From assembly GCA_964563795.1 (NCBI GenBank), contig CAZLYB010000013.1, forward strand, positions 3,107 through 67,106: 64,000 bases of DNA, read 5' to 3'. Positions within the stretch are counted from its first letter, which is position 1, and each line of letters begins with the position of its first letter. The notes under the pieces are model-generated. The model did no database searches and had not been told where the DNA came from. It saw only the letters and a program-made list of their open reading frames with translations. The translations under genes and the position numbers were made by a program. The DNA is from an uncultured Bacteriovoracaceae bacterium. Its GTDB lineage: Bacteria > Bdellovibrionota > UBA1018. This document shows, one piece after another, positions 1,886 to 53,682 of this stretch.

Positions 1886-1963
1886 TGGTCGGGGCAGCAG
1901 GATTCGAACCTGCGACCCCCTGCTCCCAAAGCAGGTGCGCTAGCCAGGCTGCGCTATGCCCCG
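1886..1963 (-). tRNA. tRNA-Pro (anticodon TGG)
   Basis: The reverse complement is CGGGGCATAGCGCAGCCTGGCTAGCGCACCTGCTTTGGGAGCAGGGGGTCGCAGGTTCGAATCCTGCTGCCCCGACCA. It folds as a cloverleaf with a 7-bp acceptor stem, anticodon loop TTTGGGA (TGG), T-loop TTCGAAT and an encoded CCA. Confidence 0.85.
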
Positions 1964-11423: not shown

Positions 11424-11433
11424 GAGTTCTTCT

Positions 11434-26175: not shown

Positions 26176-26250
26176 TGGAGTGTAGCTCAGCGGGAGAGCA
26201 TCCCCTTCACACGGGGAGGGTCGTAGGTTCAATCCCTATCACTCCAACCA
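26176..26250 (+). tRNA. tRNA-Val (anticodon CAC)
   Basis: TGGAGTGTAGCTCAGCGGGAGAGCATCCCCTTCACACGGGGAGGGTCGTAGGTTCAATCCCTATCACTCCAACCA folds as a cloverleaf with anticodon loop TTCACAC, T-loop TTCAATC and an encoded CCA. Confidence 0.85.
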
Positions 26251-36253: not shown

Positions 36254-37380
36254 TGAAAAAGCTCAAGCTCGTCATCAGCGACTTTCACCTCTCGTGCGGC
36301 CGGTGGCTCAAGGATGGGCGAAGGAATCCCCTCGAGGACTTTCATCAGGATGAGAGATTTCGGGAGCTGCTCGAGCATTACAGCACGGGATCTTACGCGG
36401 ACTGGGAAGTCGAGCTCGTCATCAATGGCGATTTCTTTGACCCCCTGGCGGTTCTTCCCATGACGGAGAACGGGAAAGTCGTCATCCTCGATTACCCTGA
36501 GGAAGTCGAGGAAGCGAGCGCCGTGACCAAATTCAAGCTGATCGCCTCGGGTCACCCCATCAGCATCAGGGCACTCGAGGCCTTTTTGGCGCGAGGCAAG
36601 AGCATCACTTTTCGATGGGGAAACCATGACGCGGCGATTCTTTGGCCGGCCGTTCAGATATTCCTAAGAGAACTGCTCCATCCGCCGCGGGCTGAGCAAT
36701 TGGCCTTCCAAAAAGACCCGTATCTCTTCGACCGCATCTGCATCGATCACGGGCATCAGCACGAAATCTTCAACCAATTTGACACTCAGCGCATCTTCAT
36801 CGAGAGAAAGATCAAGGGGGCCAAGAAAACGATCTTGAACCTTCCCTTCGGGAGCTTCTTCGTCTTCGGCTTCATCAGCCGCATCAAGCTCGAAAAACCC
36901 TTTATCACTTACGTCCAACCGCTTCGCAGCTACATCAAGCTCTCGATCTTCATGAATCCTTTATTTTTTATAGTAAATGGATTTAAAGTATCCTGGTTCT
37001 TCTTCAAGATGCGCCTGATCAAGCACCCCATGAGGTTCTCCCGGATCAGAAAAACATTCTTACTGCTGCTTGAAGCGCTCCACCGCCCCTCGCTCGAGAA
37101 GGTCGCCGAGGAGATCTTCAGTTCCCCGGAAGCGGACGCGCTGGGTTATGACACGCTCATCATGGGGCACAATCATCAAGCCATGGTCCGCGTTTTCCCG
37201 GGTGGCAAGCAATACATCAATACGGGCACTTGGACGCCGCTCACGAGCCTCGAGATGTCGACGCTGGGCCATCGCGTCCTACGCACTTACGCGCTGATTG
37301 AATACTTGGATTCAGGCGCCCCACGCTGCAGCCTCAAAGTGTGGAACGGGGAGCCCCGTTCCAACGAGGACTTCAATTAG
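36253..37380 (+). CDS. Metallophosphoesterase (calcineurin-like)
   Basis: The GDFFD and GNHD motifs are present. The ATG at 36253 overlaps the carboxyltransferase stop; the tracked 480-aa ORF is an upstream over-extension. Confidence 0.55.
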   Translation: MKKLKLVISDFHLSCGRWLKDGRRNPLEDFHQDERFRELLEHYSTGSYADWEVELVINGDFFDPLAVLPMTENGKVVILDYPEEVEEASAVTKFKLIASGHPISIRALEAFLARGKSITFRWGNHDAAILWPAVQIFLRELLHPPRAEQLAFQKDPYLFDRICIDHGHQHEIFNQFDTQRIFIERKIKGAKKTILNLPFGSFFVFGFISRIKLEKPFITYVQPLRSYIKLSIFMNPLFFIVNGFKVSWFFFKMRLIKHPMRFSRIRKTFLLLLEALHRPSLEKVAEEIFSSPEADALGYDTLIMGHNHQAMVRVFPGGKQYINTGTWTPLTSLEMSTLGHRVLRTYALIEYLDSGAPRCSLKVWNGEPRSNEDFN

Positions 37381-37667
37381 GGCGTTGACTTGATCGGGAC
37401 GGTCGTATCTGTCACGCCGGGCGTCAGATCCAGCGCAGGGGGCTTGATATTCGAGGGATCAATCGGAACCGGTACGGGTTTCAGAGCCCTTTTTTCCGCA
37501 TCCACGACGGGCAGCCCCGCTGGCACTCTTTTGAGGGTCGTGTTCAGGCTCGGGCAATCCGGATTGCCCGAATTCTCAAATCCCGAGGCTCGACCCGCCG
37601 AGAAAGCGAGACCCGCGAAGAGGGTTAAACCTAGCATCAGTTTCTTGTTCTTCAGATTCATAAACAC
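37377..37667 (-). CDS. Small secreted Pro-rich protein (96 aa)
   Basis: Signal peptide MFMNLKNKKLMLGLTLFAGLAFSA. It is the last gene of the minus-strand tad transcript. Confidence 0.35.
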   Translation of the reverse strand: MFMNLKNKKLMLGLTLFAGLAFSAGRASGFENSGNPDCPSLNTTLKRVPAGLPVVDAEKRALKPVPVPIDPSNIKPPALDLTPGVTDTTVPIKSTP

Positions 37668-37686
37668 CTCTTAAGTTAAATCATTC

Positions 37687-39369
37687 TTAAAAAGACAGGC
37701 TGACCCCGGCTGGCCGGACGATCTCCAGGAGATTTTGAAAGGCCGTGAACACTTGCGAGGCGACTTTCCTGCCCGCGGAGCTCTCGATCTTCTTCACTTC
37801 GCCGCTGTTCGTGTAGCTCATGGTGATCGTGCCTAAGTTCTCGTACTTGATCTGGGTCGGTTTGGAATTCTCGTCGTACTTGAAATCCATGCGGCGCTTC
37901 GCATTGTCGACCATGGTCTTGATGAGGCCATTGGGGAAGTAAAGCAACCGGACCGCTTTTTTCTCGGAATTTTCAGCGAAAATCATGTTCCCGCTGCCGT
38001 CATACTGGAAGTTCGACCACTGGGTCTGCCTCTTCGAGGCGCGATCCTGCCGCGTGACTCTCTTCACCTTGCCCACCTTGGCATCGTAGGAAAGCTCGGT
38101 GAGCTCAGTCGGGGTGGTCTTGCGGGTCAAATGGCCCTTCGCATCGTAGTCAAACGTGGTTTCTTCGCCTTCTTTCTTGATCGAAACCGGCAGGCCATGA
38201 CTTTCATTGTAAGTGGTCTCGGTCTTTTCCCCGTCGAGCGTGGCGATCAGCTTGTACTGCCACTCCTCCCCGTCCGCGCGCCTTTTGTTGAAGTACTCGT
38301 ACTGGGCGGAAGAGAGCTTGGCTCCCTCCTTGCTCTTCACGTTGACGGCGACGGTGTAATGATTCTTGTCGGAAGAATCGTACTGATAGGAATACTCGGT
38401 CAAGGTCCCATCCCGCTCCTTCACGGTTTTCACGTTCTCGTTCTTATCCACACCGTAGTAGGAGATTTGCAGGGTCGTTTTGTCCGCGTAGCCGATCTCA
38501 TTCATGTTGCGATTCTTGTCGTATTTGTACGAATAGGCGTTTCCGTCAACGTCCTTGCTGTACGTCAGCTCCCCCACGGCCGAATATTGGAAGGAAGCCA
38601 CTTTTTTGTTCTCTCCCTCGATCCTCTCAAGCAAACCCTGCTTATTGTAGGAAAGGAACATCTTGCGGTTGAAGTTATCCACGATCTTGGCGATACGACC
38701 GTCCTTGGAGTAAGTCAGGTCGATCGCATTCTTGTTCCGATCGGAGACTTTGACCAGTTTTCCCTGCTCATTGAAGCGCTCGACTTTGCCGCTCTCAAAA
38801 ACGCGGATGTACCCGCCCGCGACTTTGGTGATGTACTGGGGGCTGAACCGGATGGATTGGAGCTGAACCCCATTGGCCAAGGCGCGCGGCTTCAGGCGCC
38901 CGCTTTGCACGAGTTTTTCCCATTCCCTGCCCCTGAACGAAGCATCCGCTTTCAACTGAACCTTGTATTTCTTGAATTGGTCCGCCGAACCGCTGATGAG
39001 GTTCGCCGCCCTGGCCCCGTTGGCAATCTCCTCCACGGCGCGATCCAAATCCGCCTGGTTGAAATTTCCGGGGCTGAATCGATTCTCGGCGCCGCCGCCG
39101 TACTCATGGACGGTGACGCTCCCATCGGCCGCCACTTTCAGGAAAACCTCGAATTCATTGCCCCATCCCCACCCGAAGATGCCCTTGAAGGAGGTGGAGG
39201 CCTTGGCGTTGTACACCCGTTCGATCTTGGGGTCGAACCCGCCTGGATACACAATATCCGTATAACCTATGAAAAAATTTCCGTTCTTCAAGCTCACGTT
39301 CGCGCGCGCGGCTTGCGCATATAAACCGATCGTCCCCATCGTCAAAAGAATGACGGCTTTCGTTCTCAT
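37687..39369 (-). CDS. YD/RHS-repeat-containing secreted protein
   Basis: A signal peptide, then about 12 degenerate YD repeats (…LTYSKDGRI…, …YDKNRN…, …YDAKGHL…, …YDGSGNM…). There is no obvious C-terminal toxin domain, and the protein ends with Phe. Confidence 0.5.
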   Translation of the reverse strand: MRTKAVILLTMGTIGLYAQAARANVSLKNGNFFIGYTDIVYPGGFDPKIERVYNAKASTSFKGIFGWGWGNEFEVFLKVAADGSVTVHEYGGGAENRFSPGNFNQADLDRAVEEIANGARAANLISGSADQFKKYKVQLKADASFRGREWEKLVQSGRLKPRALANGVQLQSIRFSPQYITKVAGGYIRVFESGKVERFNEQGKLVKVSDRNKNAIDLTYSKDGRIAKIVDNFNRKMFLSYNKQGLLERIEGENKKVASFQYSAVGELTYSKDVDGNAYSYKYDKNRNMNEIGYADKTTLQISYYGVDKNENVKTVKERDGTLTEYSYQYDSSDKNHYTVAVNVKSKEGAKLSSAQYEYFNKRRADGEEWQYKLIATLDGEKTETTYNESHGLPVSIKKEGEETTFDYDAKGHLTRKTTPTELTELSYDAKVGKVKRVTRQDRASKRQTQWSNFQYDGSGNMIFAENSEKKAVRLLYFPNGLIKTMVDNAKRRMDFKYDENSKPTQIKYENLGTITMSYTNSGEVKKIESSAGRKVASQVFTAFQNLLEIVRPAGVSLSF

Positions 39370-39401
39370 GATTGCTCCCCTCACATGGCCTTCCTATAAG
39401 A

Positions 39402-40268
39402 CTATACGTCAATTTTGATGATTTTCATGATGACAAAAAAACCGACCGCCTCCAAGGCGATGATCAGGAGGATGATGAGCCACCCCAGGAACGTGGTAAA
39501 CAAAGGCTGCATAAACTCCGGATCTGTTTGGTAAAAAATGACTCCCAAGACCGGGGGGATCGCCATCACGAAAACGCCCTGGTAAAAGCCCTGCGCGGTC
39601 AGGGCGGCGATCTTGCTCTCCACCTTGATCCTTTCCCGGATCGTGGTCACGATCGTGTCGAAAGTCTCGGCCAAGTTCCCACCGGTCTCCTTGAGGATGT
39701 TGATCGAAGTCACGAACATCTCGACGTCGTCGGACTTGATCCTCCTCCCCAGGTTGCTGAAAGCCTCCTCGAGGGGAACGCCGAGCTTGTTCTGGTTGAG
39801 GATCAAGTTGAACTCCTGCTGGATGGGATTGCTCATTTCTTGCGTCACCAATCCCAGGGACTGCACGATGGAAAGGCCCGACTTCAGCCCGTTGGACATC
39901 AAGCTCAAGGCATCCACCATTTGCAGGATGAACTTTCGGATTCTCCTCCGATAAAGCCAATCCACGATCGGCTTCGGGGCCTTCCAAAACACGATGACGG
40001 TCAAGCTCGAGAAGACCAAGCCCGGGATCCAATTCGGAAGAAAGGCGATCATCACTAAAAAAGCCGGCCCAAGGCTCAGCGCCAGCATGATCTGCGCGAT
40101 CTTGTGGGCGGGGATATCGACGAACATGAGGCTCAGGCGATCCACCACGTAATCCCGGGTCCCCACCGACTGAAACTTCAGCCAATCCAGGAACCTTTTG
40201 TTGTAGTGGTAGGAAATCCCGAAAACCGCCGCTCCGATACTCAGGATTCCGATCACCTTGAAGAACAT
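39402..40268 (-). CDS. tadB: Tad/Flp pilus assembly inner-membrane protein TadB (T2SS-F domain)
   Basis: The T2SS-F-domain pattern …ALSLMSNGLKSGLSIVQSLGLV…GVPLEEAFSNLGRR…GGNLAETFD…IRER… is present, with three TM helices. Confidence 0.75.
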   Translation of the reverse strand: MFFKVIGILSIGAAVFGISYHYNKRFLDWLKFQSVGTRDYVVDRLSLMFVDIPAHKIAQIMLALSLGPAFLVMIAFLPNWIPGLVFSSLTVIVFWKAPKPIVDWLYRRRIRKFILQMVDALSLMSNGLKSGLSIVQSLGLVTQEMSNPIQQEFNLILNQNKLGVPLEEAFSNLGRRIKSDDVEMFVTSINILKETGGNLAETFDTIVTTIRERIKVESKIAALTAQGFYQGVFVMAIPPVLGVIFYQTDPEFMQPLFTTFLGWLIILLIIALEAVGFFVIMKIIKIDV

Positions 40269-40274
40269 CGCCCG

Positions 40275-42452
40275 TCACCCCGCCTTCGCCGTGAAAAGGC
40301 TTCGCGAGATCTTCATTCCCTTGGCTTCCATCTCTTCCACGAACTTCGGAACGAAACCGGTTGGGATCACGCGCCCGATGACTTTTCGCTTTTTATCGAG
40401 GCCTTCCTGCTTGAATACGAAAATATCTTGAAGGCTCACCACCTCGCCCTGAATCCCCACGACCTCGGTGATGTGGGTGATTTTTCGGCTTCCGTCCGAG
40501 AGGCGGCTTTGCTGAATGATGATCCCCACCGCTGAAGCGATGTTCTCGCGGATCGCTTTGGCCGGTAGGCCCAACCCCGCCATCATCACGAGCGTCTCGA
40601 GACGCGCGATGGCTTCGCGGGGATTGTTCGCGTGAAGCGTGGTGAGCGATCCCGAGTGACCGGTGTTCATCGCTTGCAACATATCGAGGGCTTCCTGGCC
40701 GCGGCACTCCCCAACCACGATTCGGTCGGGACGCATTCTCAGGCAGCTTTTCACCAAATCCCGGATGCTCACTTCGCCCTCGCCCTCGATGTTCTTGGGC
40801 CGCGACTCAAGGCGCACCACATGCTCTTGCCCAAGCTGAAGCTCGGCTGAATCCTCAACCGTGATGATTCGCTCAGTGGCGGGGATGAAATTTGAAAGCA
40901 CGTTGAGCAAGGTCGTTTTCCCGGAGCCCGTTCCTCCGGAGACCAGGACATTCAACTTCGCCTCGACGCAGCATCTCAGGAAATCCGCGATCTCGGGAGT
41001 CATCGAGCCAAAGGAGATCAGATCCTTGGCTTCCATTCTTTTTTTGGGGAACTTTCGGATCGTGATGGTCGGGCCCCGGAGCGACAAGGGGGGGATGATG
41101 ATGTGAACACGCGATCCATCGCGCAAACGCGCGTCGACGTACGGCACTTTTTCATCAACGCGGCGCCCGAGCGGCGTCACGATTCGCTCGATCACCGTCA
41201 TCATCTGCTGCTCGCTGGAGAAGGTGACTTTCGAAAGCTGGGGTTTTCCGAGACGCTCGATGTAGATTTGATCCCGGGAATTGACCATGATTTCAGTCAC
41301 GCTCTCATCCGCAAGCAGATCCTCGAGCGGCCCGAGTCCCAGCGCCTCATCGAGGACTTCCTTCACCATCTGAGATTTGAGCTCTCGGCTATTCAGGAGG
41401 GACTCGGTGTCCTCGGCGCCAAGGACGTCGAGGATCGCTTTCTGCGTTTTCTCGCGCAAAACCGCCCTCTGCTTGGGATCGTTCGTGTCAGTATTGGTCC
41501 GCTTGAGGTCCATCTGCTCGACCAAGGCCTTGTGAACCCTCAGCTTCATCGCCGTCCAAGCGTCCAGCGGCGCGGACATGCTGCGATGGATCGGGTTGCC
41601 GTCGGATCGGGCTTGGCCAGATCCATCGGGGCTGGAGCTCGCGACTGCGGCCTGCGATTGCATCTTGGCGGCCACCCCGGTCGGCTTCTTGAGCTTGGCC
41701 AAACTCTCGAGCAGATTGGATTGCTGCATTTTTCGGACGATATCGTGATAAGCGCGCGCGACGGCGGTGTTCGGCGCGGCGATGCAAAGCGGAATGCTCT
41801 TCGCGAGCGAGCTTTCGCAAGTGGGGCCATCCTCGGGAATGGCGGCAAAAATCGACTTGCCCAAGTTTTTTTGAATCAGCTGGGGATTGATGATCGAGTT
41901 TTGGGAATATCGGTTCATGACCACTTGAACCATCTCGGGGGGGAAAAGCAGCTCCTGAATTTTTCCCAGCAGGCGCTTCGTCTGATTAATCACGATGATG
42001 TCGGCGGAGGTCACCACGTAGATGGCGCTCGCGAACTCGAATGCCTTAAGAGCCCATGGATCCGTCCCGCTCCCGCAATCCACGACGGTCCAGCTGAAGA
42101 CGTTGGTGACGGACTTCAAGAATCGTCCGAGCCCGTCCAAATCCAGGTCGCGCGCCACGATCGCGTCGCGGGGGGCGCCGATGTAACTGTAACCCGCCTG
42201 CGCGTTCACCATGAAGGGGGCGAGCGTCTTGGGATCCACCGGCCCCGGCGGCATCTTGCTCACGTCAATGATGCTCTTGGGGGGATTTTGATTCAAAATG
42301 ACGTTTTGATCGCCGAGGCTATTAAGGTCGAGATCAACGATCAATGGTCTTTGTTTAAATTCTTGGAGATAAGCGATGGCCAGGTTCGCGGCGAACACGC
42401 TTTTTCCGACCCCGCCTTTTCCGCCGACCACTGCGATGATATGCCCAGGCAT
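40275..42452 (-). CDS. Fusion of a CpaE/TadZ-like ParA/MinD ATPase domain and a CpaF/TadA secretion ATPase
   Basis: The N-terminus carries the deviant Walker [15 protein letters not shown] of ParA/MinD/CpaE. The C-terminal half carries the VirB11/CpaF core [15 protein letters not shown]…RLESRP…VGECRG with His- and Asp-boxes. It is one uninterrupted 725-aa ORF. Confidence 0.8.
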
Positions 42453-42469: not shown

Positions 42470-44206
42470 TCACTTCATCTTGACCCGGAAATTCCGCTTG
42501 AGGTCTTCCGTCCCATCCGAGGCGTTCTCGATGATTTGCGGAGTGATGAAAATCACGAATTGGGATTTCGACTTCCTGTAGTTCTTGGACCGCAGCAGCG
42601 TGAAGAGCGGATCGGTCCCTTCGCTGAACGACCCGGGGCTCGGATCATCCTTATTGAAGTCCGTGCCCACCGTGGTCGCGCTCACTCCGGCGATCGCGGC
42701 GCTTTCCGCTGATTTGACGTAAAGCTTGGTATCCACCCGGTGAGTCGCGGTGATGGGTTGCGTCCCTGACGCCGGAGTCCGACCCACGAGGTTGGTTTGG
42801 TTCACCTTGATATCGACTTGGATGTCCTCGCTTTGCCCCAGGATCGTGGGCGTCACGCCGAGCTCCAGCCCCACGTCCTGCTTGCCCGCCGAGACCTGCC
42901 CATTGGCTCCCTGGATCAAGAAAGGGAATTGGGTTCCCTCAAACAGGCTCGCGGCTTGGCCGCTTCTGACGACCAAGGTCCCGGTTTTCAAAATCCTGGC
43001 ATAGCCCGCGGCCTGGGCGCTTTGAAGCTTCGGCAATAAGCTTGAGATGGTCGCGCTGAACGAAACTCCCCCGCTTCCGGTTGTGGTGGTCGTTGCTCCG
43101 GCCGTCTGGCCGTTGCTGAAAGTGACCTCGGGACCGCTGGAGGTGAACCCCGGTTGCCATTTAAAGCCAAAGAGCCGGTTGTAATCCTTGGAAAGCTCCA
43201 CGAAGTAAGCCGTGATTCGAACCAGCTTATCCTGTTTTTTCGGGGGAGGCGCGTTCACGATGATGAAAGTCTGCACCAGATTCCGCCCGGGAAGCCGCGT
43301 CGCCTGGCCCTCCGCCTCGAACCGGCCCAAGGGATTGGCGGGTTTGATTTCAGGGAGATAGAGCAGCGCGATGTTCTTCGCACGGTTGGCTTGATCAATG
43401 GTATCGACGGTCCCTTCCAAGAAGATCAGTCCATTGACCACTCTCGTCTTCACGCCGGGGGCGAACACATTGATGTCTTCTTGAATTTTTTTGGCCAGGA
43501 ATTGAAGCGCCAGCGGCGAGAGCGTCGTGAGATTCATGATGAAATCCCCGTAGGCCTTGTCCCCCACGACGGTCAGAAGGCGAGCGTAGTCATTGGGGAC
43601 GAGGATCTCCCCTTCCAAAATGACTTTAGGCCCCACGATGCGGATGTCCAAACCTTCCACGTCGCGAAGCAAAGAGCGTACTTCACCAGCCACTCGAAGC
43701 AGATTGGAACCCGTGATCCGGGCGTTGAAAATCAGGCGAATCGTCCCATCCGCGTCACGTACCGTGATGTTTGTGTCCCCCGGTTTCAAGGGCTTGAAAA
43801 CGATCTGGCGCTTTTGACCGATTTTTACGAGCGTAGTCGCGAGCAGGGTGGGATTTCCGATGGTGATCCCGCTGACTTCGGGACTCACGTCAAAATTGAG
43901 ATCGACGGCTTTGTCTTCCCCCGAAGTCAGCAGCAGCCTCCTGCGATCCGCATTCGCCTCCGACTCATCATTGGTCAATCGGGATCGCCCCACGGATCTC
44001 GCACGGCGGGAGAATCGGGGCAGGGATTGAACAGGAACGGATTTAACTTCGGGCAAAGGCTGCGACTGCGGCATGGGAGCGGGCGGGACTTGAGGCGCGG
44101 GCTCCGTCACTAAGGACCCCCCGGATGGCGGATCCTCGGCGTGGAGCTCGCCGCCCGGCGCGGCGATCAGCAGCAAGAAGATCGGGAGAAGATTCCATCG
44201 TTTCAT
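42470..44206 (-). CDS. cpaC: Tad secretin CpaC/RcpA
   Basis: A signal peptide and the secretin C-domain …FVIFITPQII… . The protein is 578 aa. Confidence 0.8.
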   Translation of the reverse strand: MKRWNLLPIFLLLIAAPGGELHAEDPPSGGSLVTEPAPQVPPAPMPQSQPLPEVKSVPVQSLPRFSRRARSVGRSRLTNDESEANADRRRLLLTSGEDKAVDLNFDVSPEVSGITIGNPTLLATTLVKIGQKRQIVFKPLKPGDTNITVRDADGTIRLIFNARITGSNLLRVAGEVRSLLRDVEGLDIRIVGPKVILEGEILVPNDYARLLTVVGDKAYGDFIMNLTTLSPLALQFLAKKIQEDINVFAPGVKTRVVNGLIFLEGTVDTIDQANRAKNIALLYLPEIKPANPLGRFEAEGQATRLPGRNLVQTFIIVNAPPPKKQDKLVRITAYFVELSKDYNRLFGFKWQPGFTSSGPEVTFSNGQTAGATTTTTGSGGVSFSATISSLLPKLQSAQAAGYARILKTGTLVVRSGQAASLFEGTQFPFLIQGANGQVSAGKQDVGLELGVTPTILGQSEDIQVDIKVNQTNLVGRTPASGTQPITATHRVDTKLYVKSAESAAIAGVSATTVGTDFNKDDPSPGSFSEGTDPLFTLLRSKNYRKSKSQFVIFITPQIIENASDGTEDLKRNFRVKMK

Positions 44207-44209
44207 TCT

Positions 44210-45049
44210 TTACCTACGCCCATTGGCGGGAGCCCGCGGCGCGCGCGAGTAATCCGCCCCCAGCACATCGGAAAACAAGCTCGAACCCAAATTGACCCTC
44301 TCGGTGTCATCATTATTGCGCAGTGAAAGCGTAAGCGCGTGATCGCTATTGGCCATCACGAGCGCGAGCGCTTGCGCTTGGTTGGGATCCACTTCAAGAG
44401 TGATGGAGCCGAAAGAGGAATCCTCGTTCAAATTCTTGATCCTCTCCTTGCCGCCGAAAAGATCCGGCTCGATCAAGCGAGGCACGTTGTTGGTGACGTT
44501 TTTTCCCACGGAGAGGACGACCACGTCTTGCAGGAAGGTTTTCGCGATTTTCCCTTCTTTTCCCCCGCCAAGATCCAGGACAGCGATCAGATCGACCCGA
44601 TCGCCGGGCTTCACCAATTTTGAAACGCCGCTGATCTCATCGATGCGGATCGCGAAGGCGCGTTTTCCCGGGGTGATTTGAGGCGCGAGGCCCGTGCGCA
44701 TATTGGGCTCCGTCACTTTGTTCTGGGTGACTTGCTCGCCTTTTTTGATGGGAACCAGGGCGACGGTCCCGGCCATGCTCTTAAGGCCCCGTGTCGTCTC
44801 CTTATCCTCTTCCTTCTTCTCAAAATAAATGGCGTTCGGCTCCAAAAACCGCTTTGGGATTCGCTCGATGCTCAAAACGGTTTCGTTGATCGTTTCAAGC
44901 TCGCGAATGTCCTTCTTCGCCTTGATGACGAGGACTTCGGCGCCGAATTTCCGGCTGGCCTCTTCTTCGATGCTGGAAACGTAACTCATGACGAAGAACA
45001 CCGCCAAAGCGGCCATCAAAAGCGACAGGGTGAGCGCGCGATTATTCAT
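44210..45049 (-). CDS. cpaB: Flp pilus assembly protein CpaB/RcpC
   Basis: A TM anchor MNNRALTLSLLMAALAVFFV, followed by SAF and RcpC domains. The start is placed at Met39 of the tracked ORF; Met25 is also possible. Confidence 0.7.
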   Translation of the reverse strand: MNNRALTLSLLMAALAVFFVMSYVSSIEEEASRKFGAEVLVIKAKKDIRELETINETVLSIERIPKRFLEPNAIYFEKKEEDKETTRGLKSMAGTVALVPIKKGEQVTQNKVTEPNMRTGLAPQITPGKRAFAIRIDEISGVSKLVKPGDRVDLIAVLDLGGGKEGKIAKTFLQDVVVLSVGKNVTNNVPRLIEPDLFGGKERIKNLNEDSSFGSITLEVDPNQAQALALVMANSDHALTLSLRNNDDTERVNLGSSLFSDVLGADYSRAPRAPANGRR

Positions 45050-45617
45050 ATTGGAGCGGGCCTCCGCAAATCTGGAACTGGCTTGCCTCATCGAGGCGGT
45101 AAAGCGCGGTTGCTTTGGAATCCGGGCCGTAAGGGGGACCTGAGAGCGGCAAGATGGCGGCATCCCCGGAACCGTTTCGAACGACGTTCGCCTGCGTGCA
45201 CAGGGTCACCGTGTTCCTCACGCGCACGAGCGCGCGTTCCGCTGGCTCTTGCCCGGTCTCATCCTGCGCGGGCGCGCGCCTTCGAGTGACGTTCTTGGTG
45301 GGGGCTTTCGGGATGTACCGTTCGCCGGGCTCACTGGGGCTGGCGTTCTCCGCAACGCCGATCACCATCTGATTGTAACTTTTTGCAGTCAATTCGGCCT
45401 CCCGCAGGGAGAGATAGGGATACACGGGACTATTGTAGGTGAGCCAGAGCGCCTGGGCGCGGGCGTACTGCTGATTCACGATCCCCACTTGAATCGCCGT
45501 ATTCACGCGGATGAGAATCAAGGCGAGCGTGAGCATCATCGGAAGCATCAAAAGAAATTCGATGACGCTTTGGCCCGATTGATCCAAGATCAATGCTCCA
45601 GACGGGTTAACACCCAT
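45042..45617 (-). CDS. TadE-like pseudopilin
   Basis: The N-terminal prepilin-like segment QSGQSVIEFLLMLPMMLTLAL contains the G/xxxxEF motif. Confidence 0.55.
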   Translation of the reverse strand: MGVNPSGALILDQSGQSVIEFLLMLPMMLTLALILIRVNTAIQVGIVNQQYARAQALWLTYNSPVYPYLSLREAELTAKSYNQMVIGVAENASPSEPGERYIPKAPTKNVTRRRAPAQDETGQEPAERALVRVRNTVTLCTQANVVRNGSGDAAILPLSGPPYGPDSKATALYRLDEASQFQICGGPLQYE

Positions 45618-46161
45618 TATCGATCACTCCCTTCAGGCGATCCATTTCCTGCCGGCATTCCTCGACAGTGGGCTCTCGAAGCAGCCAACTCTCGGAAATG
45701 AGCCGCAGCGTGTTGACTGAATCCTGACCGGAGGACTTCCTTCCCGCGCCGGCCAAAGGGATCAGAAACACCCTGCTCTTAAATGCGTATCGGACTCCCT
45801 GAAGCCAACTGAAGTACTGGTTGTCTTCCTGGTACTGCGAAGGGGGCTTGATGCGCAGCCCCGAAACCTCCTGATCGCTGCCCCACGCCGCATCCCCCTT
45901 CGCGATGAAGGGGAATCGATCCTGGGAAGCCTGGGACTGGCCTCGCTTCAAAGTGCGGCTGATGACGTCAGCGGCGCGCTGGAGCTGATCGTCTTTGCCA
46001 GGGCCAGCTGAAAGATAGGCGCGGGCCGACATGAAAGTGGCGTAATGCGCGTAGTTCCCGAACCCAAAAACTAAAGAAAGTTGATAGAAAAAAAAGACGA
46101 ACCCCATCAGGAACATCAAGGTCAACGCGAATTCCACGGTGGACTGGCCTTTGGAGTTCAT
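45607..46161 (-). CDS. TadE/TadF-like pseudopilin
   Basis: N-terminal MNSKGQSTVEFALTLMFLMGFVFFF. Confidence 0.55.
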   Translation of the reverse strand: MNSKGQSTVEFALTLMFLMGFVFFFYQLSLVFGFGNYAHYATFMSARAYLSAGPGKDDQLQRAADVISRTLKRGQSQASQDRFPFIAKGDAAWGSDQEVSGLRIKPPSQYQEDNQYFSWLQGVRYAFKSRVFLIPLAGAGRKSSGQDSVNTLRLISESWLLREPTVEECRQEMDRLKGVIDNGC

Positions 46162-46469
46162 CGCCCCCCCGTCCGGGTCGGACTGATGAACATGCGAAAA
46201 TTGCCGCTTCCCGCCTGAGGTCTCGCGCGCGGATGATACTGGACGTCCTGGCCGCCCTCTTCCTCATACCCCACCGCCTTCGGATGCCCGTATTGGTAAG
46301 TACGCGCGAAATCGCTCGAGATGGGCTTCATGAGGCGGGCCTCGATATTCATCTTCCTGAGGCTCGCGGCGATCATCGCGAAGAAGCCAGCGATGATCGC
46401 AATGAGCAGGATGTACTCGGTGATCGCCTGCCCGCTTTGATTTTTTACGGCCAAATCCATTTTTCCCAC
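46158..46469 (-). CDS. Pilin-like protein (Flp/TadE-like N-terminus)
   Basis: NQSGQAITEYILLIAIIAGFFAMIA carries the Flp-type G/xxxxEY cleavage motif. At 103 aa it is longer than a typical Flp pilin. Confidence 0.45.
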   Translation of the reverse strand: MGKMDLAVKNQSGQAITEYILLIAIIAGFFAMIAASLRKMNIEARLMKPISSDFARTYQYGHPKAVGYEEEGGQDVQYHPRARPQAGSGNFRMFISPTRTGGR

Positions 46470-47014
46470 CCTAAATGCCCGAATCCTTCCTTGAGCGGAT
46501 GCACGCCCCCCGCAACGAGCAGCGCCGCCGCCCCGATCGCGATTCCAAGGGGTATCTTTAGGGATCGATCAAATTGAAAATTTACTAAAGGGGGCAGGCG
46601 CCATAGGACAGCCTGCATGAGGGCGCGGCATTTAATAAGAAACTGCGAAGCTCTCCCTCGCCAAATCAATGACAGGGCGGCGAGCGCTCCCCCGAACAAA
46701 ACCCCCATCACCGCCACTTCAGCACAGTAAAGAGGACCACCCCACGCTCCGAACGCCATGAGCAGTTTCACGTCGCCCGCTCCCAAGTGCCGGAGGGCGT
46801 AAATCCACCCATACAGAAGAAAACCCGCCAAGATTCCCAATGCTGAAAATCCGGCGCCGCTCCATCCTCCCTGCCCCCAATGGAACAAAAGACCGAGCAT
46901 GAGCGAAGGAATCGTCAACGCATTGACGATTTTACCCCAAAGAAGATCGGTGATCGCGGCGAGAACCGCAGTGAGAATGAGGAAGTAAAACGGGATTTCA
47001 ACTGTCCCAGACAT
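46445..47014 (-). CDS. tadV: Prepilin peptidase (TadV/CpaA, A24 family)
   Basis: Polytopic, with the catalytic LGAGDVKLL motif. The start is placed at MSGTVEIPFYF. Confidence 0.7.
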   Translation of the reverse strand: MSGTVEIPFYFLILTAVLAAITDLLWGKIVNALTIPSLMLGLLFHWGQGGWSGAGFSALGILAGFLLYGWIYALRHLGAGDVKLLMAFGAWGGPLYCAEVAVMGVLFGGALAALSLIWRGRASQFLIKCRALMQAVLWRLPPLVNFQFDRSLKIPLGIAIGAAALLVAGGVHPLKEGFGHLGWEKWIWP

Positions 47015-47222
47015 AGAGCGGCGCTCGTCCGGTTTTGAGGTCCTTTTCAAGCTGGCCCCCGAGCTTCAGCATGCCTTGGTCCAGCGTCTTGATGATCGTT
47101 CGGGAGATGGCGACCGCGCTGACGACCACGGCCGAGAGGATCAATAGATATTCAACGGTGCCCTGACCGTCTTCTTCCAACCAGAATTCACGCCAGAATG
47201 AGCGAGCCGATTCCTTCAGCAA
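46998..47222 (-). CDS. flp: Flp-family pilin
   Basis: The leader is followed by GQGTVEYLLILSAVVVSAVAI (Flp motif). Confidence 0.75.
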   Translation of the reverse strand: MLKESARSFWREFWLEEDGQGTVEYLLILSAVVVSAVAISRTIIKTLDQGMLKLGGQLEKDLKTGRAPLYVWDS

Positions 47223-47236
47223 GATGCTCCCTCGTT

Positions 47237-47470
47237 TTATTGATCCAACGGATTCGTGGCATCAATCATATTTTTTTCGGTTCGATCGAGGATCGTGCTC
47301 AGGGAAGAGCCGAATTTCGCGCGGAACTTCAGCGCGACCATCACGACGATGGCCAAAATCAAGATGTACTCGGTCGTCGTCTGGCCTTCTTCATCAGACC
47401 AAAACGCGGAGAGTCGCTTTTTCCATGCTGCGAGCGCCATAGATACCCCTGAATTCATGCCTCTACCCAA
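47237..47470 (-). CDS. flp: Flp-family pilin (second copy)
   Basis: EEGQTTTEYILILAIVVMVAL carries the Flp motif. It lies 14 nt upstream of the first copy and is preceded by an AT-rich 76-nt intergenic region. Confidence 0.75.
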   Translation of the reverse strand: MGRGMNSGVSMALAAWKKRLSAFWSDEEGQTTTEYILILAIVVMVALKFRAKFGSSLSTILDRTEKNMIDATNPLDQ

Positions 47471-47546: not shown

Positions 47547-48284
47547 TCAGAAAAAGATCAATGTTGCCCAGAGGTTATCCTCGCGGCCTTGCTCGCCCTG
47601 GAGCTCATTCAAAGCCTCCAAAGCCGCTCCTCGCCCCATGAAGAATGCTTCCCAAAGCTTCTGACGCTCCCCCTCCAAAAGCCCGTCCGTGTGGAGGAAC
47701 AACCCATCCCCGGAATGGATCCGGCACTCCAGGATCTCGGGCTCCAAATCTTCATTGAGGCCCAGGGCCGCCAAAGGGACGCCCTCCTCGCACAGCGTCG
47801 CTTCTTTCTTGAAGGGATCGAGTAATCGCCCATAGCTTCTGGGCGTCGTCAGCTCCGCCATCCCGCTCTGCCTGAAAATCCAAGCCTGGCAGGAGCCGAT
47901 GGAACCCAGGGAGAGCTGATCCCCGTCCAAGAAGCCCGCCACCAAGGATGCGCCCGCCTTTTCATGAACGCTTCGATTCCTGTTCTTCGACAGAAGCTTG
48001 CGGTTGGAGTGAACAAGCGCGTTGAAAAGCACGTTCCCTGCGAGTGAATAATAATGGCGAATCACGAAAGGCAGCGTCGCCTCGCGATCCCCTACCTCCT
48101 TCACAAGAAACGCCTGCACCGCCTCGCACGCCAGCTTGGAAGCGGCCGATCCCGCAGATGGGCCTCCGAATCCATCAGCCACCGCGAAAACTCCTCTTTC
48201 GGCCGAAGCCCATCCGAAATCCTCCTGAGCGGGCCTCTGGCCAACCGCCGAGCAATGGGCGATCTCGGAAATCAATCGGCTCAT
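47547..48284 (-). CDS. PP2C-family Ser/Thr protein phosphatase
   Basis: The motifs QRPAQEDFGW, VADGFGG and LHTDGL follow PP2C metal-binding motifs 1, 2 and 8. Confidence 0.7.
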   Translation of the reverse strand: MSRLISEIAHCSAVGQRPAQEDFGWASAERGVFAVADGFGGPSAGSAASKLACEAVQAFLVKEVGDREATLPFVIRHYYSLAGNVLFNALVHSNRKLLSKNRNRSVHEKAGASLVAGFLDGDQLSLGSIGSCQAWIFRQSGMAELTTPRSYGRLLDPFKKEATLCEEGVPLAALGLNEDLEPEILECRIHSGDGLFLHTDGLLEGERQKLWEAFFMGRGAALEALNELQGEQGREDNLWATLIFF

Positions 48285-50665
48285 TCCGCCTCCCCTTCTT
48301 CAATGACGGCGCTCGCGGGATAGCGCGAGAGCTTGCGCGAGGCGCGCTCATGATAAAGGTCATCCTTGGGGACGAGCGCCAGGATCTCCTTGTATTTTTT
48401 CTGAGCCGTCGAGAAATCACTGTAGCTCTCCGCCAGGACCGCCTCCGTGTAAACCCCCTTGGCCCTCTCATGAAGCGCAGAACGGGTTCGCTCCACGCCC
48501 TGTTGGCTCGCCGAGAAGGAGGGATCGATGATGCTGGCCCGCTGATACAGCTGATAGGCTTGCGGGATGTTTCCCGAGTCCTCATTCTGTTTCGCGGCTT
48601 GCACGATCGGATCCCGCTTGGACTGGATCGCCTGCAAGGAGGCTTGAATCAACGCCTTGGAATGCCTCAGTAGCTTCGCGTCGCTTGCGCCGATTTCCTT
48701 AATTTTATAAAATCTCGAAATCGCGTCGCGGTATCTGCCCCGCCGCCTCAAGCTGAGGCCTTCCTTCAGCAAGGCCCACCCCTTTGCGTTGATTTCTCTT
48801 TGGACTTCCCGCTCTTGCTCGAGCAGTCTTCGCTTGGTCTCATCCGCTTCGATTTCTTGCCGCCATTGAGCGACCAAGGCGTTCTCCGGATCAAGCGCCA
48901 GGATCTGGCCGAAAATCTCCTTGGCGATGTCGTACTGCCGCTTGGACATCTTCAATGAGGCTTCTTCGGTTAATTGCCCCACTTTGACTTTGATGCGCTC
49001 TTCCTCTTCCTTCTTTCGAGCCTCTTCAAGCTGAGCCTCCCTTTTTTGACGGCCTTCCTGGGCGTATCGCTCGATCTCGCGGGAGTCCTTGTAGTCGGGG
49101 ACGAGCTTGAAAATTTTCTCGATCTCATAGAGGGCTCGGTCGAAATCACCGGCCTTGTAATATTCAAACGCCCGATCATGCTGCTCCTGGACGAATTTTT
49201 TTTGCTCTGCGGTCAGCGACTCAAAGGTCGCTTGCTTCGCGGCATCAGCCGCGTTCTCGGCGGACGGCTTCTTTTGAGGCGCATCGATGACATCCTCATC
49301 CCCCGGTCCGAAATACCAGATGAAGGCGCAAGTCAGGGCGATCACCAGATATTGCTTCGGCTTGGAAAGATTCCTGAATTTTTCGATCAATCCCTTGGGT
49401 TTTGCCTGCTCTTGCGGGGCTCCCACTCCGGTGATCCCTGCGATCGAAGAATCACCGACCGCCGCTGAAGAAAAAGGCAGCGCGGACGGCGGCGGCATCA
49501 TCGGCGAATGGTACGCGGCATTGAAATTCTCAAAAGCCGAATCCGCCTGGATTTCCTCCTCCTGAGGCAAAGAGACGAGCGCCGCCTCCTGCTTGAGGTA
49601 ATCCTTGCTATGGGCCTGGAATTCAAACTCGACGTTTCCAATTCGGATGCGGTCGCCGGCCGAGAGCTCCTGCTCCTGAATTTTGACTTGATTCACGTAG
49701 GTTCCGTTGGAGGAACCAAGATCCTTGATCAAAAACCGGTGCTGATTCCTGAGGATGACCGTATTTTTTCGGGAAGCCTTTTTATCGTTCAATACGATAT
49801 CGCACGTCTTCCCACGCCCCAGGCTCACTTCATCCTTGATGATTTCATACTCAGTGACGTTCGCGGTGCCTGGGTCAAAAAGCAGCTTCGAATCGACTCT
49901 CGCCACTGAGACGACTTGGGTATGCTCGCCCGTGGGGGCATCCAGAGCTGGAACTTCAGGCGCCTCCAAATCAATCCCCGTTCCCTCCTCGTGCGCGTCG
50001 GCGGAAGCCTCGGCGAGGAGCGGGGGATCCTCAAGCGTGAGACCCGGGACTTCATTCGTCTTTGAATCTTCTTGGGAATCTTCTTGGGAATCTTCTTGGG
50101 AATTTTCGGGAGAAGCCGTGATCTCCTCCTGAACAGGGGCGTTCTCCAGAGGCGCGGGGGAGTCCTCAAAAAAGGCCACCGGCTGCGTCGCTTCGGGATC
50201 TTCGGATTTCAGCGGTCCTGATTCAAACGGCAACGGCTCGCTGGGCGTCTCCAGCGGGGCTTCGGCGGCGACTTCCTGAAAAGGCGAAGTGATCTCGCCG
50301 GAATCCGGATGATCCGTCGCGGGAGCAGCTGATTCAACGGCGGATTCCGGCGCCGGCTCGGAGAACGGGGAGGCTTCGAGCGAAAGCCTCGCCAAATAGG
50401 GGCCGATCGCGATGACATCGCCTGACTTCAAAATGGCCTTCGTGCACTCCTGCCCATTGATGGTCAGAGGCGCGAATTCGCTCTGGCGCTCCACTTGAAT
50501 TCCGCCAGTGACGCGGCTAAAGCGGGCGTGTTCCCGCGAGATCGCGCGATCATCCAGCCGGATCACGCAGCCTTCGGCCCTGCCCACCAGGACATCGCCT
50601 TCAATCGGCACGCTCTTGATCTGCTCGCCATCCTTTAAGATGGTCAGAATCGCGGCCGCGCCCAT
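48281..50665 (-). CDS. Membrane-anchored protein with two FHA domains, an acidic repeat linker and a C-terminal TPR/coiled-coil region
   Basis: FHA-1 at the N-terminus (…VGRAEGCVIRLDDRAISREHARF…). FHA-2 lies around residues 260-340 (GRGKTCDIVLNDKKASRKNTVI…LGSSNGTYVN). One TM segment (LVIALTCAFIWYF) is followed by TPR-like repeats. Confidence 0.7.
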   Translation of the reverse strand: MGAAAILTILKDGEQIKSVPIEGDVLVGRAEGCVIRLDDRAISREHARFSRVTGGIQVERQSEFAPLTINGQECTKAILKSGDVIAIGPYLARLSLEASPFSEPAPESAVESAAPATDHPDSGEITSPFQEVAAEAPLETPSEPLPFESGPLKSEDPEATQPVAFFEDSPAPLENAPVQEEITASPENSQEDSQEDSQEDSKTNEVPGLTLEDPPLLAEASADAHEEGTGIDLEAPEVPALDAPTGEHTQVVSVARVDSKLLFDPGTANVTEYEIIKDEVSLGRGKTCDIVLNDKKASRKNTVILRNQHRFLIKDLGSSNGTYVNQVKIQEQELSAGDRIRIGNVEFEFQAHSKDYLKQEAALVSLPQEEEIQADSAFENFNAAYHSPMMPPPSALPFSSAAVGDSSIAGITGVGAPQEQAKPKGLIEKFRNLSKPKQYLVIALTCAFIWYFGPGDEDVIDAPQKKPSAENAADAAKQATFESLTAEQKKFVQEQHDRAFEYYKAGDFDRALYEIEKIFKLVPDYKDSREIERYAQEGRQKREAQLEEARKKEEEERIKVKVGQLTEEASLKMSKRQYDIAKEIFGQILALDPENALVAQWRQEIEADETKRRLLEQEREVQREINAKGWALLKEGLSLRRRGRYRDAISRFYKIKEIGASDAKLLRHSKALIQASLQAIQSKRDPIVQAAKQNEDSGNIPQAYQLYQRASIIDPSFSASQQGVERTRSALHERAKGVYTEAVLAESYSDFSTAQKKYKEILALVPKDDLYHERASRKLSRYPASAVIEEGEAE
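50064..50107. repeat. 12-bp tandem repeat (GAATCTTCTTGG x3 plus a partial copy) encoding SQEDSQEDSQED
   Basis: Seen directly. It is in frame within the FHA protein's acidic linker. Confidence 0.7.
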
Positions 50666-51648
50666 CAGCCCGTCCCTTCAGGCGCTTGCATCAGCTCCAC
50701 CGTTTTTTGAAGCTGGTCCTTCGCCTCACGAAAAGGAGTGCTCTCGGGTTCGCGGTAAAGCAGCCTCATCACCGCCTCGTAGTGGCCTTTCGCTTCTTTC
50801 AATTTGCCGCTTTGGAGGCCTTTTTTCCCGCGCTCGAGGTGGAACTTCACTTCGTCCTCGATCATCTTATTGCAGTTTTGAAGATACAAAGTGGCGAGCC
50901 GGTGGCCCGGGGCAACTTGAAGAACCGTTTCAAACTGAGTCTTGGCCCGCAGATAATTTTTTTCCCGAAACTCGCGAAACCCCCCTTTGAAGAACATTTC
51001 AGCGGAACGAGTGGCTTCTGGCGTGGCCACGCTTGGGGGCAAGAAAGAGGCTAAATCCCGGATTGGCGGATTTTCCGGCCGGGAACGCGATTTTTTGGGC
51101 CCTCCCGGGGAGAGGACAAAGTAAAAAACCAAGGCGACTGCGGCCAGACCGCCTAATTTGAAAAGCCGGGAGCGTGAACCCGATGCCCCCGAGTTTTTTC
51201 CCAAGGACTGGACGTGTTTTCGAGCGGTCTCCAGCTGAGCATGCCCCAAAAGAATTTTCGAGACTTCCCTGGAGGGGGCGGTCAAAAGGCTGGTCGCGGA
51301 TTGGTTTGAAACGAGGAATTCGAGCACCGTTTCGCCCAAATGGATCGTATCGCCCAGGTTGAGGACCGCTTCCCGGGCGGATTTCCCATTATGCAAAATT
51401 CCATTCGCGCTCCCCGCATCGCGCACCGACCAGCTTCCCTGAGCCGTTGAAATGAGCTCGGCGTGCTGCCGCGAAGCTTTCAAATCCAAAAGGACGACGT
51501 CATTTTCTTCCCCGCGGCCAATGGTCGCGCGTGGAGACGTCAGGACATAGAGCGCGCCCTGGTCGGGACCTTGGGCGACCTTCAAGCGCGCAAGTTCCCC
51601 GTTTTGCCGAGGAACCTGAGCCGTCCTGAATTTCAAGGCCCCCTTCAT
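50665..51648 (-). CDS. FHA-domain membrane protein with C-terminal TPR repeats
   Basis: FHA segment …ATIGRGEENDVVLLDLKASRQHAEL…GSANGILHNG… and a TM segment LGGLAAVALVFYFVL, followed by TPR-like repeats. The start is placed at MKGALKF (51648), 2 nt after the upstream stop. Confidence 0.65.
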   Translation of the reverse strand: MKGALKFRTAQVPRQNGELARLKVAQGPDQGALYVLTSPRATIGRGEENDVVLLDLKASRQHAELISTAQGSWSVRDAGSANGILHNGKSAREAVLNLGDTIHLGETVLEFLVSNQSATSLLTAPSREVSKILLGHAQLETARKHVQSLGKNSGASGSRSRLFKLGGLAAVALVFYFVLSPGGPKKSRSRPENPPIRDLASFLPPSVATPEATRSAEMFFKGGFREFREKNYLRAKTQFETVLQVAPGHRLATLYLQNCNKMIEDEVKFHLERGKKGLQSGKLKEAKGHYEAVMRLLYREPESTPFREAKDQLQKTVELMQAPEGTG

Positions 51649-51650
51649 CT

Positions 51651-53285: not shown

Positions 53286-53650
53286 AGCTCATCCCCATCC
53301 CGGATCGAGCACCGCTCGAGAGTACCCACCGGGAGCTCGAAAGTATCCGTCGCTTTGCGATCGCGAAGCGGGAGAACTTTCCAAGGGCGCACGTCGGAAT
53401 GCGCGGAAGTCACCACCCACTTCAGCGCGCCGGACGACGAACGTTCACGGCGTGCGAAAACGACGTCGATCGAGACGCTCATGAACCACATGTGAATGTC
53501 GTTGCAGCGAGGAAACCACATTCCCTCACCCTCCCTCAGGCTCGTTCTCCCGATCAGGCCTTTGAGCCGGTCGAAAAAACACTTTGCCACATGACACTTA
53601 TCGGCAATAACCAATTGATTTTTTAGGGAATACAGCTGGATGGTCTTCAT
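53273..53650 (-). CDS. DUF192-domain protein
   Basis: …GLIGRTSLREGEGMWFPRCNDIHMWFMSVSIDVVF… matches the DUF192/COG1430 core. The start is placed at MKTIQLY. Confidence 0.5.
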   Translation of the reverse strand: MKTIQLYSLKNQLVIADKCHVAKCFFDRLKGLIGRTSLREGEGMWFPRCNDIHMWFMSVSIDVVFARRERSSSGALKWVVTSAHSDVRPWKVLPLRDRKATDTFELPVGTLERCSIRDGDELCIN

Positions 53651-53682
53651 ACGGCCCATTCTCCCTTGAATTCCCAAGAAAA

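Follow-up and report, generated by a model that had tools for sequence, protein, structure and literature searches.

The 64,000-nucleotide (nt) window analyzed here, positions 3,107-67,106 of contig CAZLYB010000013.1 (assembly GCA_964563795.1; all coordinates below are window positions), comes from an uncultured Bacteriovoracaceae bacterium. It contains a gene for a 560-amino-acid (aa) RHS/YD-repeat protein (37687..39369, minus strand) and, immediately downstream, a gene for a small secreted Pro-rich protein of 94 aa (37377..37661, minus strand). This pair is the already-studied host-interaction (hit) locus, found here in an uncultured member of Bdellovibrionota at the end of a Kil-type Tad/Flp pilus operon, and is not a new kind of system. 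The hit locus has been known genetically since 1992 and biochemically since 2013-2014; the earlier note on this DNA did not recognize it, and the pair is not an unexplained feature. The 560-aa protein is almost certainly an orthologue of Bd0109 of Bdellovibrio bacteriovorus HD100, and the small protein is a positional and compositional analogue of Bd0108 and of Bd0103, a small secreted neighbour of Bd0108, and not a demonstrated member of their family. Overall, the two proteins are best explained as a periplasmic, pilus-associated regulatory pair, to which a probability of about 0.62 is assigned; the regulatory mechanism itself stands at about even odds.

The orthology to Bd0109 is drawn from a full-length alignment, common terminal motifs, and identical gene order. 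The window protein aligned collinearly with Bd0109 (P0390 = CAE77783.1, 550 aa) over residues 16-558 of 560 (BLASTP, 32% identity, E = 6e-93). Bd0109 had been located through its primer-derived termini (LVDMKNANYS and PATAELYL), which led to a 50%-cluster representative, a second homology search, and a cluster look-up, and P0390 was identified as Bd0109 by these termini together with the published signal-peptide site (AFA/LV). Bd0109 has been described as a 62.5-kDa Sec-exported protein (Capeness et al., 2013, PMC3818213; Prehna et al., 2014, PMC4267844). Both proteins are Sec-exported, are 550-560 aa long, contain DUF6531 and approximately 13 YD repeats, and lack a protease or toxin end, and both are encoded directly after tadB in a Flp/Tad operon with a CpaE-CpaF fusion. 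Directly after the signal peptide, the window protein (ARA/NVSLKNGNFF) and Bd0109 (AFA/LVDMKNANY) share the motif xV..KN.N[FY], and both carry P-A-x-x-x-L-x-[FL] at the C-terminus (PATAELYL in Bd0109). On the other hand, the window protein belongs to a different clade from Bd0109, with 55-65% identity to proteins of metagenome-assembled genomes (MAGs) labelled UBA1018 or Oligoflexia and 32% to Bd0109, and it contains no Cys, whereas Bd0109 has four. At residues 390-391 (approximately 38202-38197), the window protein has SH, and most orthologues of its clade have the CC of YNECCGLP; among RHS relatives, this CC pair does not track the presence of a Cys in the small partner.

The RHS open reading frame (ORF; 39384-37687, minus strand) encodes 565 aa from a GTG codon and 560 aa from ATG 39369, the latter being the product present in public data. 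Judged from the sequence, ATG 39369 is the likely start, with a ribosome-binding site (GAGGGGAG; 39375..39382, minus strand) 5 nt upstream. The tadB stop codon lies at 39402-39404, and the distance of 17 nt from tadB that had been given earlier holds for the GTG start, but becomes 32 nt for the likely ATG start. A Sec signal peptide was read at aa 1-23 (MRTKAVILLTMGTIGLYAQAARA, followed by NVSLKNG; 39301..39369, minus strand); it is of type I, with neither a prepilin G/xxxxE[FY] leader nor a lipobox. Its cleavage register, A-x-A/[NL]V..KN.N[FY], is conserved across the RHS family and agrees with the published cleavage of Bd0109. Pfam matched RHS_repeat (PF05593, E = 2e-19) and DUF6531 (aa 30-95, E = 1.5e-9), and NCBIfam matched YD_repeat_2x (TIGR01643, E = 6e-14), which bears out the YD-repeat assignment of the earlier note. 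Tyr residues spaced by about 21 positions (220, 262, 283, 304, 326, 357, 387, 408, 428, 456, 477, 498, and 519) correspond to approximately 13 repeats. The RHS and DUF6531 families were the only Pfam and NCBIfam matches of the protein, with no toxin or enzymatic domain and no TPR, TadD, or RcpB similarity. Neither the DPxGL/PxxxxDPxGL protease motif nor DPxG occurs in it, and the RHS_core model scored 36.7 bits against a cut-off of 2000 bits, in agreement with the missing toxin tip and RHS core motif that had been remarked before. The RHS protein is not a toxin, a reading that follows from the absence of the protease motif.

An AlphaFold2 (AF2) model based on a 72-sequence alignment that spanned the window and Bdellovibrio clades reached a pLDDT of 89.8 and a pTM of 0.83. 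It replaced an earlier model from a 34-sequence alignment (pLDDT 78), in which the conserved N-terminus was unmodelled and superpositions were poor. The predicted structure begins with the signal helix, which is followed by a beta-rich, plug-like DUF6531/Rhs N-terminal domain (aa 24-100; 39070..39300; strands 24-26, 31-40, 48-55, and 76-100), the most conserved segment of the protein, and by a poorly conserved insertion of three helices (105-121, 129-141, and 143-155, within aa 105-155; 38905..39057). The YD/RHS beta-sheet (aa 169-530; 37780..38865) comprises approximately 35 strands and 13 repeats, and the chain closes with a helix (534-554) and a short tail. This C-terminal helix and tail (aa 534-560, ending in AFQNLLEIVRPAGVSLSF; 37690..37770; all of these segments lie on the minus strand) are near-invariant in the family alignment and stand in place of the canonical Rhs protease/toxin end. 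Foldseek matched the model to Rhs cocoons of type VI secretion systems (T6SS), teneurins, and TcB/TcC at a probability of 1.0. The best superposition was on the Advenella VgrG-Rhs core 8qja_B (TMq 0.56, TMt 0.33), and the protein is therefore regarded as roughly half a cocoon; the model spans about a third to a half of the solved cocoons.

The YD beta-sheet fold is thus shared with the canonical Rhs/YD cocoons (RhsA 7q97, Advenella VgrG-Rhs 8qja, TcB/TcC, and teneurin), as is DUF6531, a Pfam domain that usually precedes the repeats of Rhs proteins. In contrast to these cocoons, the sheet of the window protein is approximately half as long (TMt ~0.33) and is without the aspartyl-protease closing motif, an encapsulated toxin, and PAAR/VgrG. 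The protein also differs from canonical Rhs toxins in that it has no polymorphic C-terminus or immunity gene, is exported by Sec, and is encoded in a pilus operon. Residues 42-81 aligned locally to residues 262-302 of RhsA 7q97, but this alignment was short and non-significant (conditional E ~1e-3, independent E 170). A sequence search of the PDB for a solved Bd0109 structure gave only generic Rhs and teneurin matches.

The family to which the RHS protein belongs is large and uniform. Among 5.8 billion proteins searched, there were more than 120 homologues from Bdellovibrionota/Oligoflexia MAGs with 55-65% identity and lengths of 541-595 aa, except for one of 524 aa, and an exhaustive phmmer search over 50%-cluster representatives identified 454 of them at E <= 1e-30. 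Of the 150 best-scoring ones, most aligned end-to-end at approximately 550-570 aa, down to about 30% identity, and some were shorter fragments. The most conserved parts were the mature N-terminus with DUF6531 (residues 21-100) and the last 20-30 residues. Since the termini are invariant across the family, the C-terminus is not polymorphic, and a family with near-constant length and fixed termini is the opposite of a polymorphic toxin.

The gene order around the RHS gene was compared in 76 related loci, with adjacency to tadB judged where the upstream flank sufficed; the contig scan used exact peptide patterns, which reach the clade of the window itself and not Bdellovibrio proper. The RHS gene came directly after tadB in all related loci whose upstream flank was long enough, with a single exception (L058). 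The operon order in the related loci was FHA, PP2C, Flp, A24, three minor pilins, CpaB, secretin, CpaE-CpaF, TadB, and RHS, and the order secretin, CpaE-CpaF, TadB, RHS, and small secreted gene recurred in more than 60 Bdellovibrionota loci. The two B. bacteriovorus loci (L077 and L079) contained RcpC, secretin, the CpaE-CpaF fusion, TadB, Bd0109, Bd0108, and a second small secreted gene. In B. bacteriovorus, bd0108 and bd0109 are co-transcribed with bd0110 (tadB) and bd0111 (tadA) (PMC3818213; PMC4267844), and bd0109-bd0113 are syntenic attack-phase core genes (PMC5430801). The view that the pair functionally belongs to the tad operon, already taken in the earlier note, is upheld by this adjacency and by the co-transcription of bd0108-bd0110 (PMC3818213).

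The exceptional locus, L058, is located on a 2.8-Mb contig of a Bryobacterales MAG, where a member of the family with 42% identity that contains DUF6531 and RHS (9881-11644) has no tad context and directly follows genes for a WD40-repeat protein (1237 aa) and a caspase-domain protein (680 aa); this placement may be due to horizontal transfer, or the fold may be put to another use there. Labels outside Bdellovibrionota were also carried by L043 (candidate division WWE3), L046 and L049 (Deltaproteobacteria), and L053 (Pseudomonadota). The first three of these contain tad genes, and L053 shows the RHS gene alone; these odd labels are probably due to misbinning or outdated taxonomy and not to a real spread of the module.

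The small gene starts 25 nt after the RHS gene. ATG 37661, preceded by an AAGAGG ribosome-binding site, is its likely start and gives 94 aa, the product that is also called publicly, whereas GTG 37667 gives the 96 aa reported earlier; the exported and Pro-rich character reported along with that length was retained, with a Sec-type signal peptide (approximately aa 1-23/27) and 13 Pro among 94 residues, or 19% of the mature part. The single Cys36 lies in NPDCPS, and there is no CXXC. Bd0108, whose gene comes right after that of Bd0109, is exported by Sec, has 101 aa, and is intrinsically disordered (PMC3818213; PMC4267844), and the 101-aa product in the B. bacteriovorus loci fits the published Bd0108 in its ASA/DE cleavage and in N32, D36, C56, and C59. 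Bd0108 and the window protein are each encoded by the first gene after the Bd0109 orthologue, on the same strand and with a gap of <=25 nt, and both are approximately 95-100 aa long, begin with a Sec signal peptide, and have a low-complexity composition of the disorder type. In each, an Asp directly precedes a Cys (PDC within NPDCPS in the window, GDC within GDCREC in Bd0108). The window protein is, however, much richer in Pro and has a single Cys, compared with the CXXC (C56/C59) of Bd0108.

Counterparts of the small gene, defined as 45-140-aa ORFs with a signal peptide within 700 nt downstream, were present in 59 of the 65 loci with enough downstream sequence, compared with 9.3% of random windows (p = 7e-54). 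Their sequences have diverged widely: phmmer of the window protein against all ORFs of the related loci retrieved only itself, and all-against-all BLASTP of the mature regions produced 3 edges among the 59 counterparts. Their composition was disorder-like, with 74% A/G/S/T/P/D/E/K and 12% bulky hydrophobic residues in the mature regions. At least one mature Cys was found in 58 of the 59 and exactly one in 48, typically about 12 residues past the signal peptide. This Cys is the centre of a weak D-C-P...D motif, a candidate binding or redox motif, in which Asp is enriched just before the Cys (-1, p = 4e-4), Pro just after it (+1, p = 3e-4), Ala/Asn in position +4, and Asp in position +5 (18/57, p = 2e-8). 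A lipoprotein reading of the small protein was rejected, as the Cys lies 5-25 residues past the predicted cleavage site in most members and not in a lipobox. A disulfide between this Cys and the RHS protein was likewise rejected in the organism of the window because its RHS protein has no Cys.

Many loci (L002, L010, L016, L029, L038, L043, L045, L065, L077 at 12166-12366, and L079 at 12164-12364) contained a second small secreted ORF after the first, again with a single Cys soon past the signal peptide and Bd0103-like in B. bacteriovorus, which suggests tandem duplication of the small partner in those loci. Only one copy is present in the window, as the next gene is convergent. Small secreted genes in arrays of two or three beside Bd0109 homologues are known from Bdellovibrionales MAGs (PMC10469934); the sole additions to these reported arrays are the Cys motif and the occurrence in other classes.

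The operon that precedes the pair is of the Kil type. Kil-type Tad systems (M. xanthus Kil and the Kil-like loci of Bdellovibrionota) and the window operon have in common Flp and minor pilins, CpaB, a short secretin, one ATPase, TadB/TadC, and FHA proteins, and TadG, RcpB, and TadD are absent from both (PMC8460266; PMC12075869; PMC13200544). In line with the lack of RcpB and TadG stated in the earlier note, neither family was matched by Pfam among the operon proteins scanned. The set of PP2C and FHA genes upstream of the pilins is a Kil-type signalling signature, and FHA and PP2C matches were kept in the related loci. The operon of B. bacteriovorus is without a prepilin peptidase and the upstream FHA and PP2C genes (PMC5430801), all of which are present in the window. 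The window ATPase is a CpaE-CpaF fusion, whereas KilF of Myxococcus is fused to an FHA domain instead of CpaE. In the paper on the Myxococcus Kil clusters an RHS gene is never mentioned, which applies to its description of the clusters and not to the clusters themselves (PMC8460266). The RHS and small-protein module appears to be an addition that is largely confined to Bdellovibrionota-labelled genomes.

Work on B. bacteriovorus provides the basis for the periplasmic regulatory pair. Bd0108 binds Bd0109, and both are periplasmic in E. coli (PMC3818213). Mutants of bd0108 showed altered piliation and growth without prey, and a bd0109 deletion was not obtained (PMC3818213). The interaction had a dissociation constant (Kd) of 45 uM and a stoichiometry of 3, from which an encapsulation hypothesis was proposed (PMC4267844). 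By analogy, the RHS protein and the small protein of the window, both exported by Sec, would act in the periplasm, with the RHS sheet serving as a binding scaffold or cage. The presumably disordered small protein would bind the RHS half-shell weakly and dynamically (Kd ~45 uM in B. bacteriovorus), with up to three copies per shell and possibly inside it. Occupancy is proposed to determine the action of the RHS protein on the pilus machinery, either at the cell wall or at the secretin, and the bound or unbound state may tune pilus extrusion and retraction and relay a contact or growth signal into the cell.

Several points weigh against this explanation. The small protein is an orphan that found only itself in the search of 5.8 billion proteins, showed no detectable similarity to Bd0108 in BLASTP (E = 0.11), and did not match the NCBIfam model hit_Bd0108 (NF053838, named "predatory lifecycle switch protein") at E <= 1 (cut-off 40 bits). 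True Bd0108 proteins scored 102-131 bits on this model (1e-29 to 1e-38), and one of 58 positional counterparts matched it weakly (E = 0.0032, not significant after multiple testing, and not among the 10 candidates rescanned). Because sequence similarity is lacking and there is one Cys instead of a CXXC, the equivalence to Bd0108 relies on position and composition only. Furthermore, even in B. bacteriovorus the mechanism is hypothetical, the localization comes from E. coli only, and the regulated pilus could be type IVa or Tad. The term "host-independence switch" may not transfer literally because the lifestyle of UBA1018 is not established and some members are magnetotactic (PMC13200544).

Two explanations survive less well. 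The earlier note had considered the pair as an exported cargo or a surface adhesin, in which case the RHS half-shell, with or without the small protein, would pass through the Tad/Kil secretin in the manner of a type II secretion system (T2SS) or would sit at the pilus tip, contacting prey or substrate. None of the Tad systems is known to secrete folded cargo. The RHS gene is a distal member of the pilus operon in the related loci, its product is exported by Sec into the compartment that supplies T2SS-like machines, and the characterized RHS shells (Tc toxins, T6SS Rhs, and teneurins) all act at or beyond the cell surface. The small partner diverges very fast, as expected of a prey-facing molecule, and the effector of the Kil system is still unknown (PMC8460266). 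However, because the RHS protein has a Sec type-I signal and no prepilin leader, it cannot be a pilin subunit, nothing speaks for a tip or adhesin made of pilin, and two Flp pilins and three minor pilins able to form a tip complex are already encoded (PMC12075869). A toxin or enzymatic domain is missing from the RHS protein. In published data, tagged Bd0109 and Bd0108 are periplasmic in E. coli and are presented as interacting regulators that control how pili are extruded and retracted, not as surface adhesin or cargo (PMC3818213). In addition, bd0109 appears essential even in prey-independent growth, in which the flp pilin genes are dispensable (PMC3818213, PMC5430801). A role as cargo or adhesin is thus considered unlikely.

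The RHS protein could also be a structural assembly factor, a periplasmic or outer-membrane-associated scaffold that would dock on the short Kil-type secretin or the wall and replace a pilotin or the accessory proteins TadD and RcpB, with the small protein as a minor modulator. The invariant N-terminus and tail are consistent with such a role, and the tail (P-A-G-V-S-L-S-F), with its alternating hydrophobic residues and F/L end, resembles a docking or beta-augmentation peptide. Kil-type systems are without TadD, RcpB, and TadG, and the N0 domain is missing from their secretin (PMC8460266). A structural role at the wall/PilQ site was put forward as an alternative by Capeness et al., and the essentiality of bd0109 fits it (PMC3818213). 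On the other hand, the RHS protein has no lipobox, TPR, or similarity to TadD or RcpB, and the homologue L058 stands outside any tad context. The Myxococcus Kil paper, as far as its description of the clusters goes, has no mention of RHS, although TadD, RcpB, and TagG-type factors are reportedly lacking there (PMC8460266). The related proposal of the earlier note, that the pair replaces RcpB and TadG non-orthologously, is not needed because the operon has three minor pilins and Kil-type systems generally lack TadG, RcpB, and TadD (PMC8460266; PMC12075869). An assembly factor is accordingly an improbable alternative to the periplasmic regulatory pair.

It is very doubtful that the RHS half-cocoon would cage the presumably disordered, Cys-bearing peptide in the periplasm for a Kil-type Tad piston to hand shell or peptide through the secretin onto or into a contacted cell. 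This idea draws only on where the genes lie in the operon, on their export by Sec, on the part that all known RHS shells play in delivery, and on the fast divergence of the small partner; if true, no earlier cargo would be known for a Tad-type machine, and the Rhs delivery fold would be at work without a toxin. A degenerate polymorphic toxin, that is, a truncated Rhs/WapA remnant with a former immunity or orphan gene beside the tad operon by chance, is essentially refuted by the family conservation and the tadB synteny: YD repeats and DUF6531 are typical of Rhs toxins and some database records name homologues "WapA", but length and C-terminus are conserved across hundreds of lineages, the DPxGL motif and a toxin domain are absent, none of the genes within approximately 10 kb was recognized as PAAR, VgrG, or T6SS, and the downstream protein is secreted and disorder-like by composition.

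The closest relatives (FG-1, FG-2, JAMPXJ01, and CAIRTR01) belong to the GTDB class UBA1018, for which the name Bdellonasia has been proposed and which carries a Kil-like system, with some magnetotactic members (PMC13200544). The gene pair itself is ordinary for Bdellovibrionota. Reviews describe bd0108 as restricted to a Bdellovibrio subgroup; the present comparison shows that Kil-type Tad operons far outside this genus, including those of UBA1018, keep the hit module as a conserved distal component. The two genes are better annotated as "Bd0109-like hit-locus RHS protein" and "Bd0108/Bd0103-like small secreted protein" than as "RHS toxin/WapA" and "hypothetical". Proteins of the Bd0109 family hardly vary in length, and their mature N-terminus and C-terminal tail are invariant; their small partners, otherwise unalignable, share one Cys in the short D-C-P...D motif. 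No paper found after 2014 resolves the function of Bd0109, on which the Cys motif, the tail, and the N-terminal plug offer concrete handles.

The remaining genes of the operon are all on the minus strand. Directly upstream of the RHS gene are the tadB-like inner-membrane platform gene (39402..40268; T2SSF, E = 3.4e-18) and the gene for the 725-aa fusion of CpaE (ParA/MinD-like) and CpaF (TadA ATPase) (40275..42452; Pfam CbiA/ParA and T2SSE). The fusion occurs in all related loci (714-739 aa) and in B. bacteriovorus, where the copies have 738 and 739 aa. They are preceded by a CpaC/RcpA-like secretin (42470..44206; Secretin, E = 2e-17), CpaB/RcpC (44210..45163; RcpC, E = 2.4e-22), and three minor-pilin genes (45042..46469; 191, 184, and 103 aa) whose translations have G/xxxxE[FY] prepilin leaders. 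The 184-aa minor pilin scored 21.5 bits against Pfam TadE, slightly under the curated cut-off of 22.9 bits. A prepilin peptidase (Peptidase_A24) and two Flp pilin genes with GQxTxEY motifs (46998-47222 and 47237-47470) occupy 46445..47470. Farther upstream of the pilins, 47547-54600 encodes a PP2C phosphatase, three proteins with FHA domains (794, 348, and 544 aa), a DUF192 protein, and another T2SSF protein (TadC-like).

At the other end, the stop codon of the small gene overlaps the end of a convergent metallophosphoesterase gene by 4 nt, which marks the end of the operon at the small gene. No immunity-like gene follows the pair, as had been stated earlier, since the next gene is this metallophosphoesterase. 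Promoter and terminator scans around the two genes gave nothing above shuffle expectation, and Rfam identified no RNA family near them; the only Rfam matches in the window were two tRNA genes (1889-1963, minus strand, and 26176-26247, plus strand). The longest CpaB ORF (44210-45163) overlaps the preceding minor-pilin gene (45042-45617) on the same strand by approximately 120 nt, and the true start of CpaB is probably an internal Met (MNNRALTLSLL...), which would yield a normal N-terminal transmembrane anchor.

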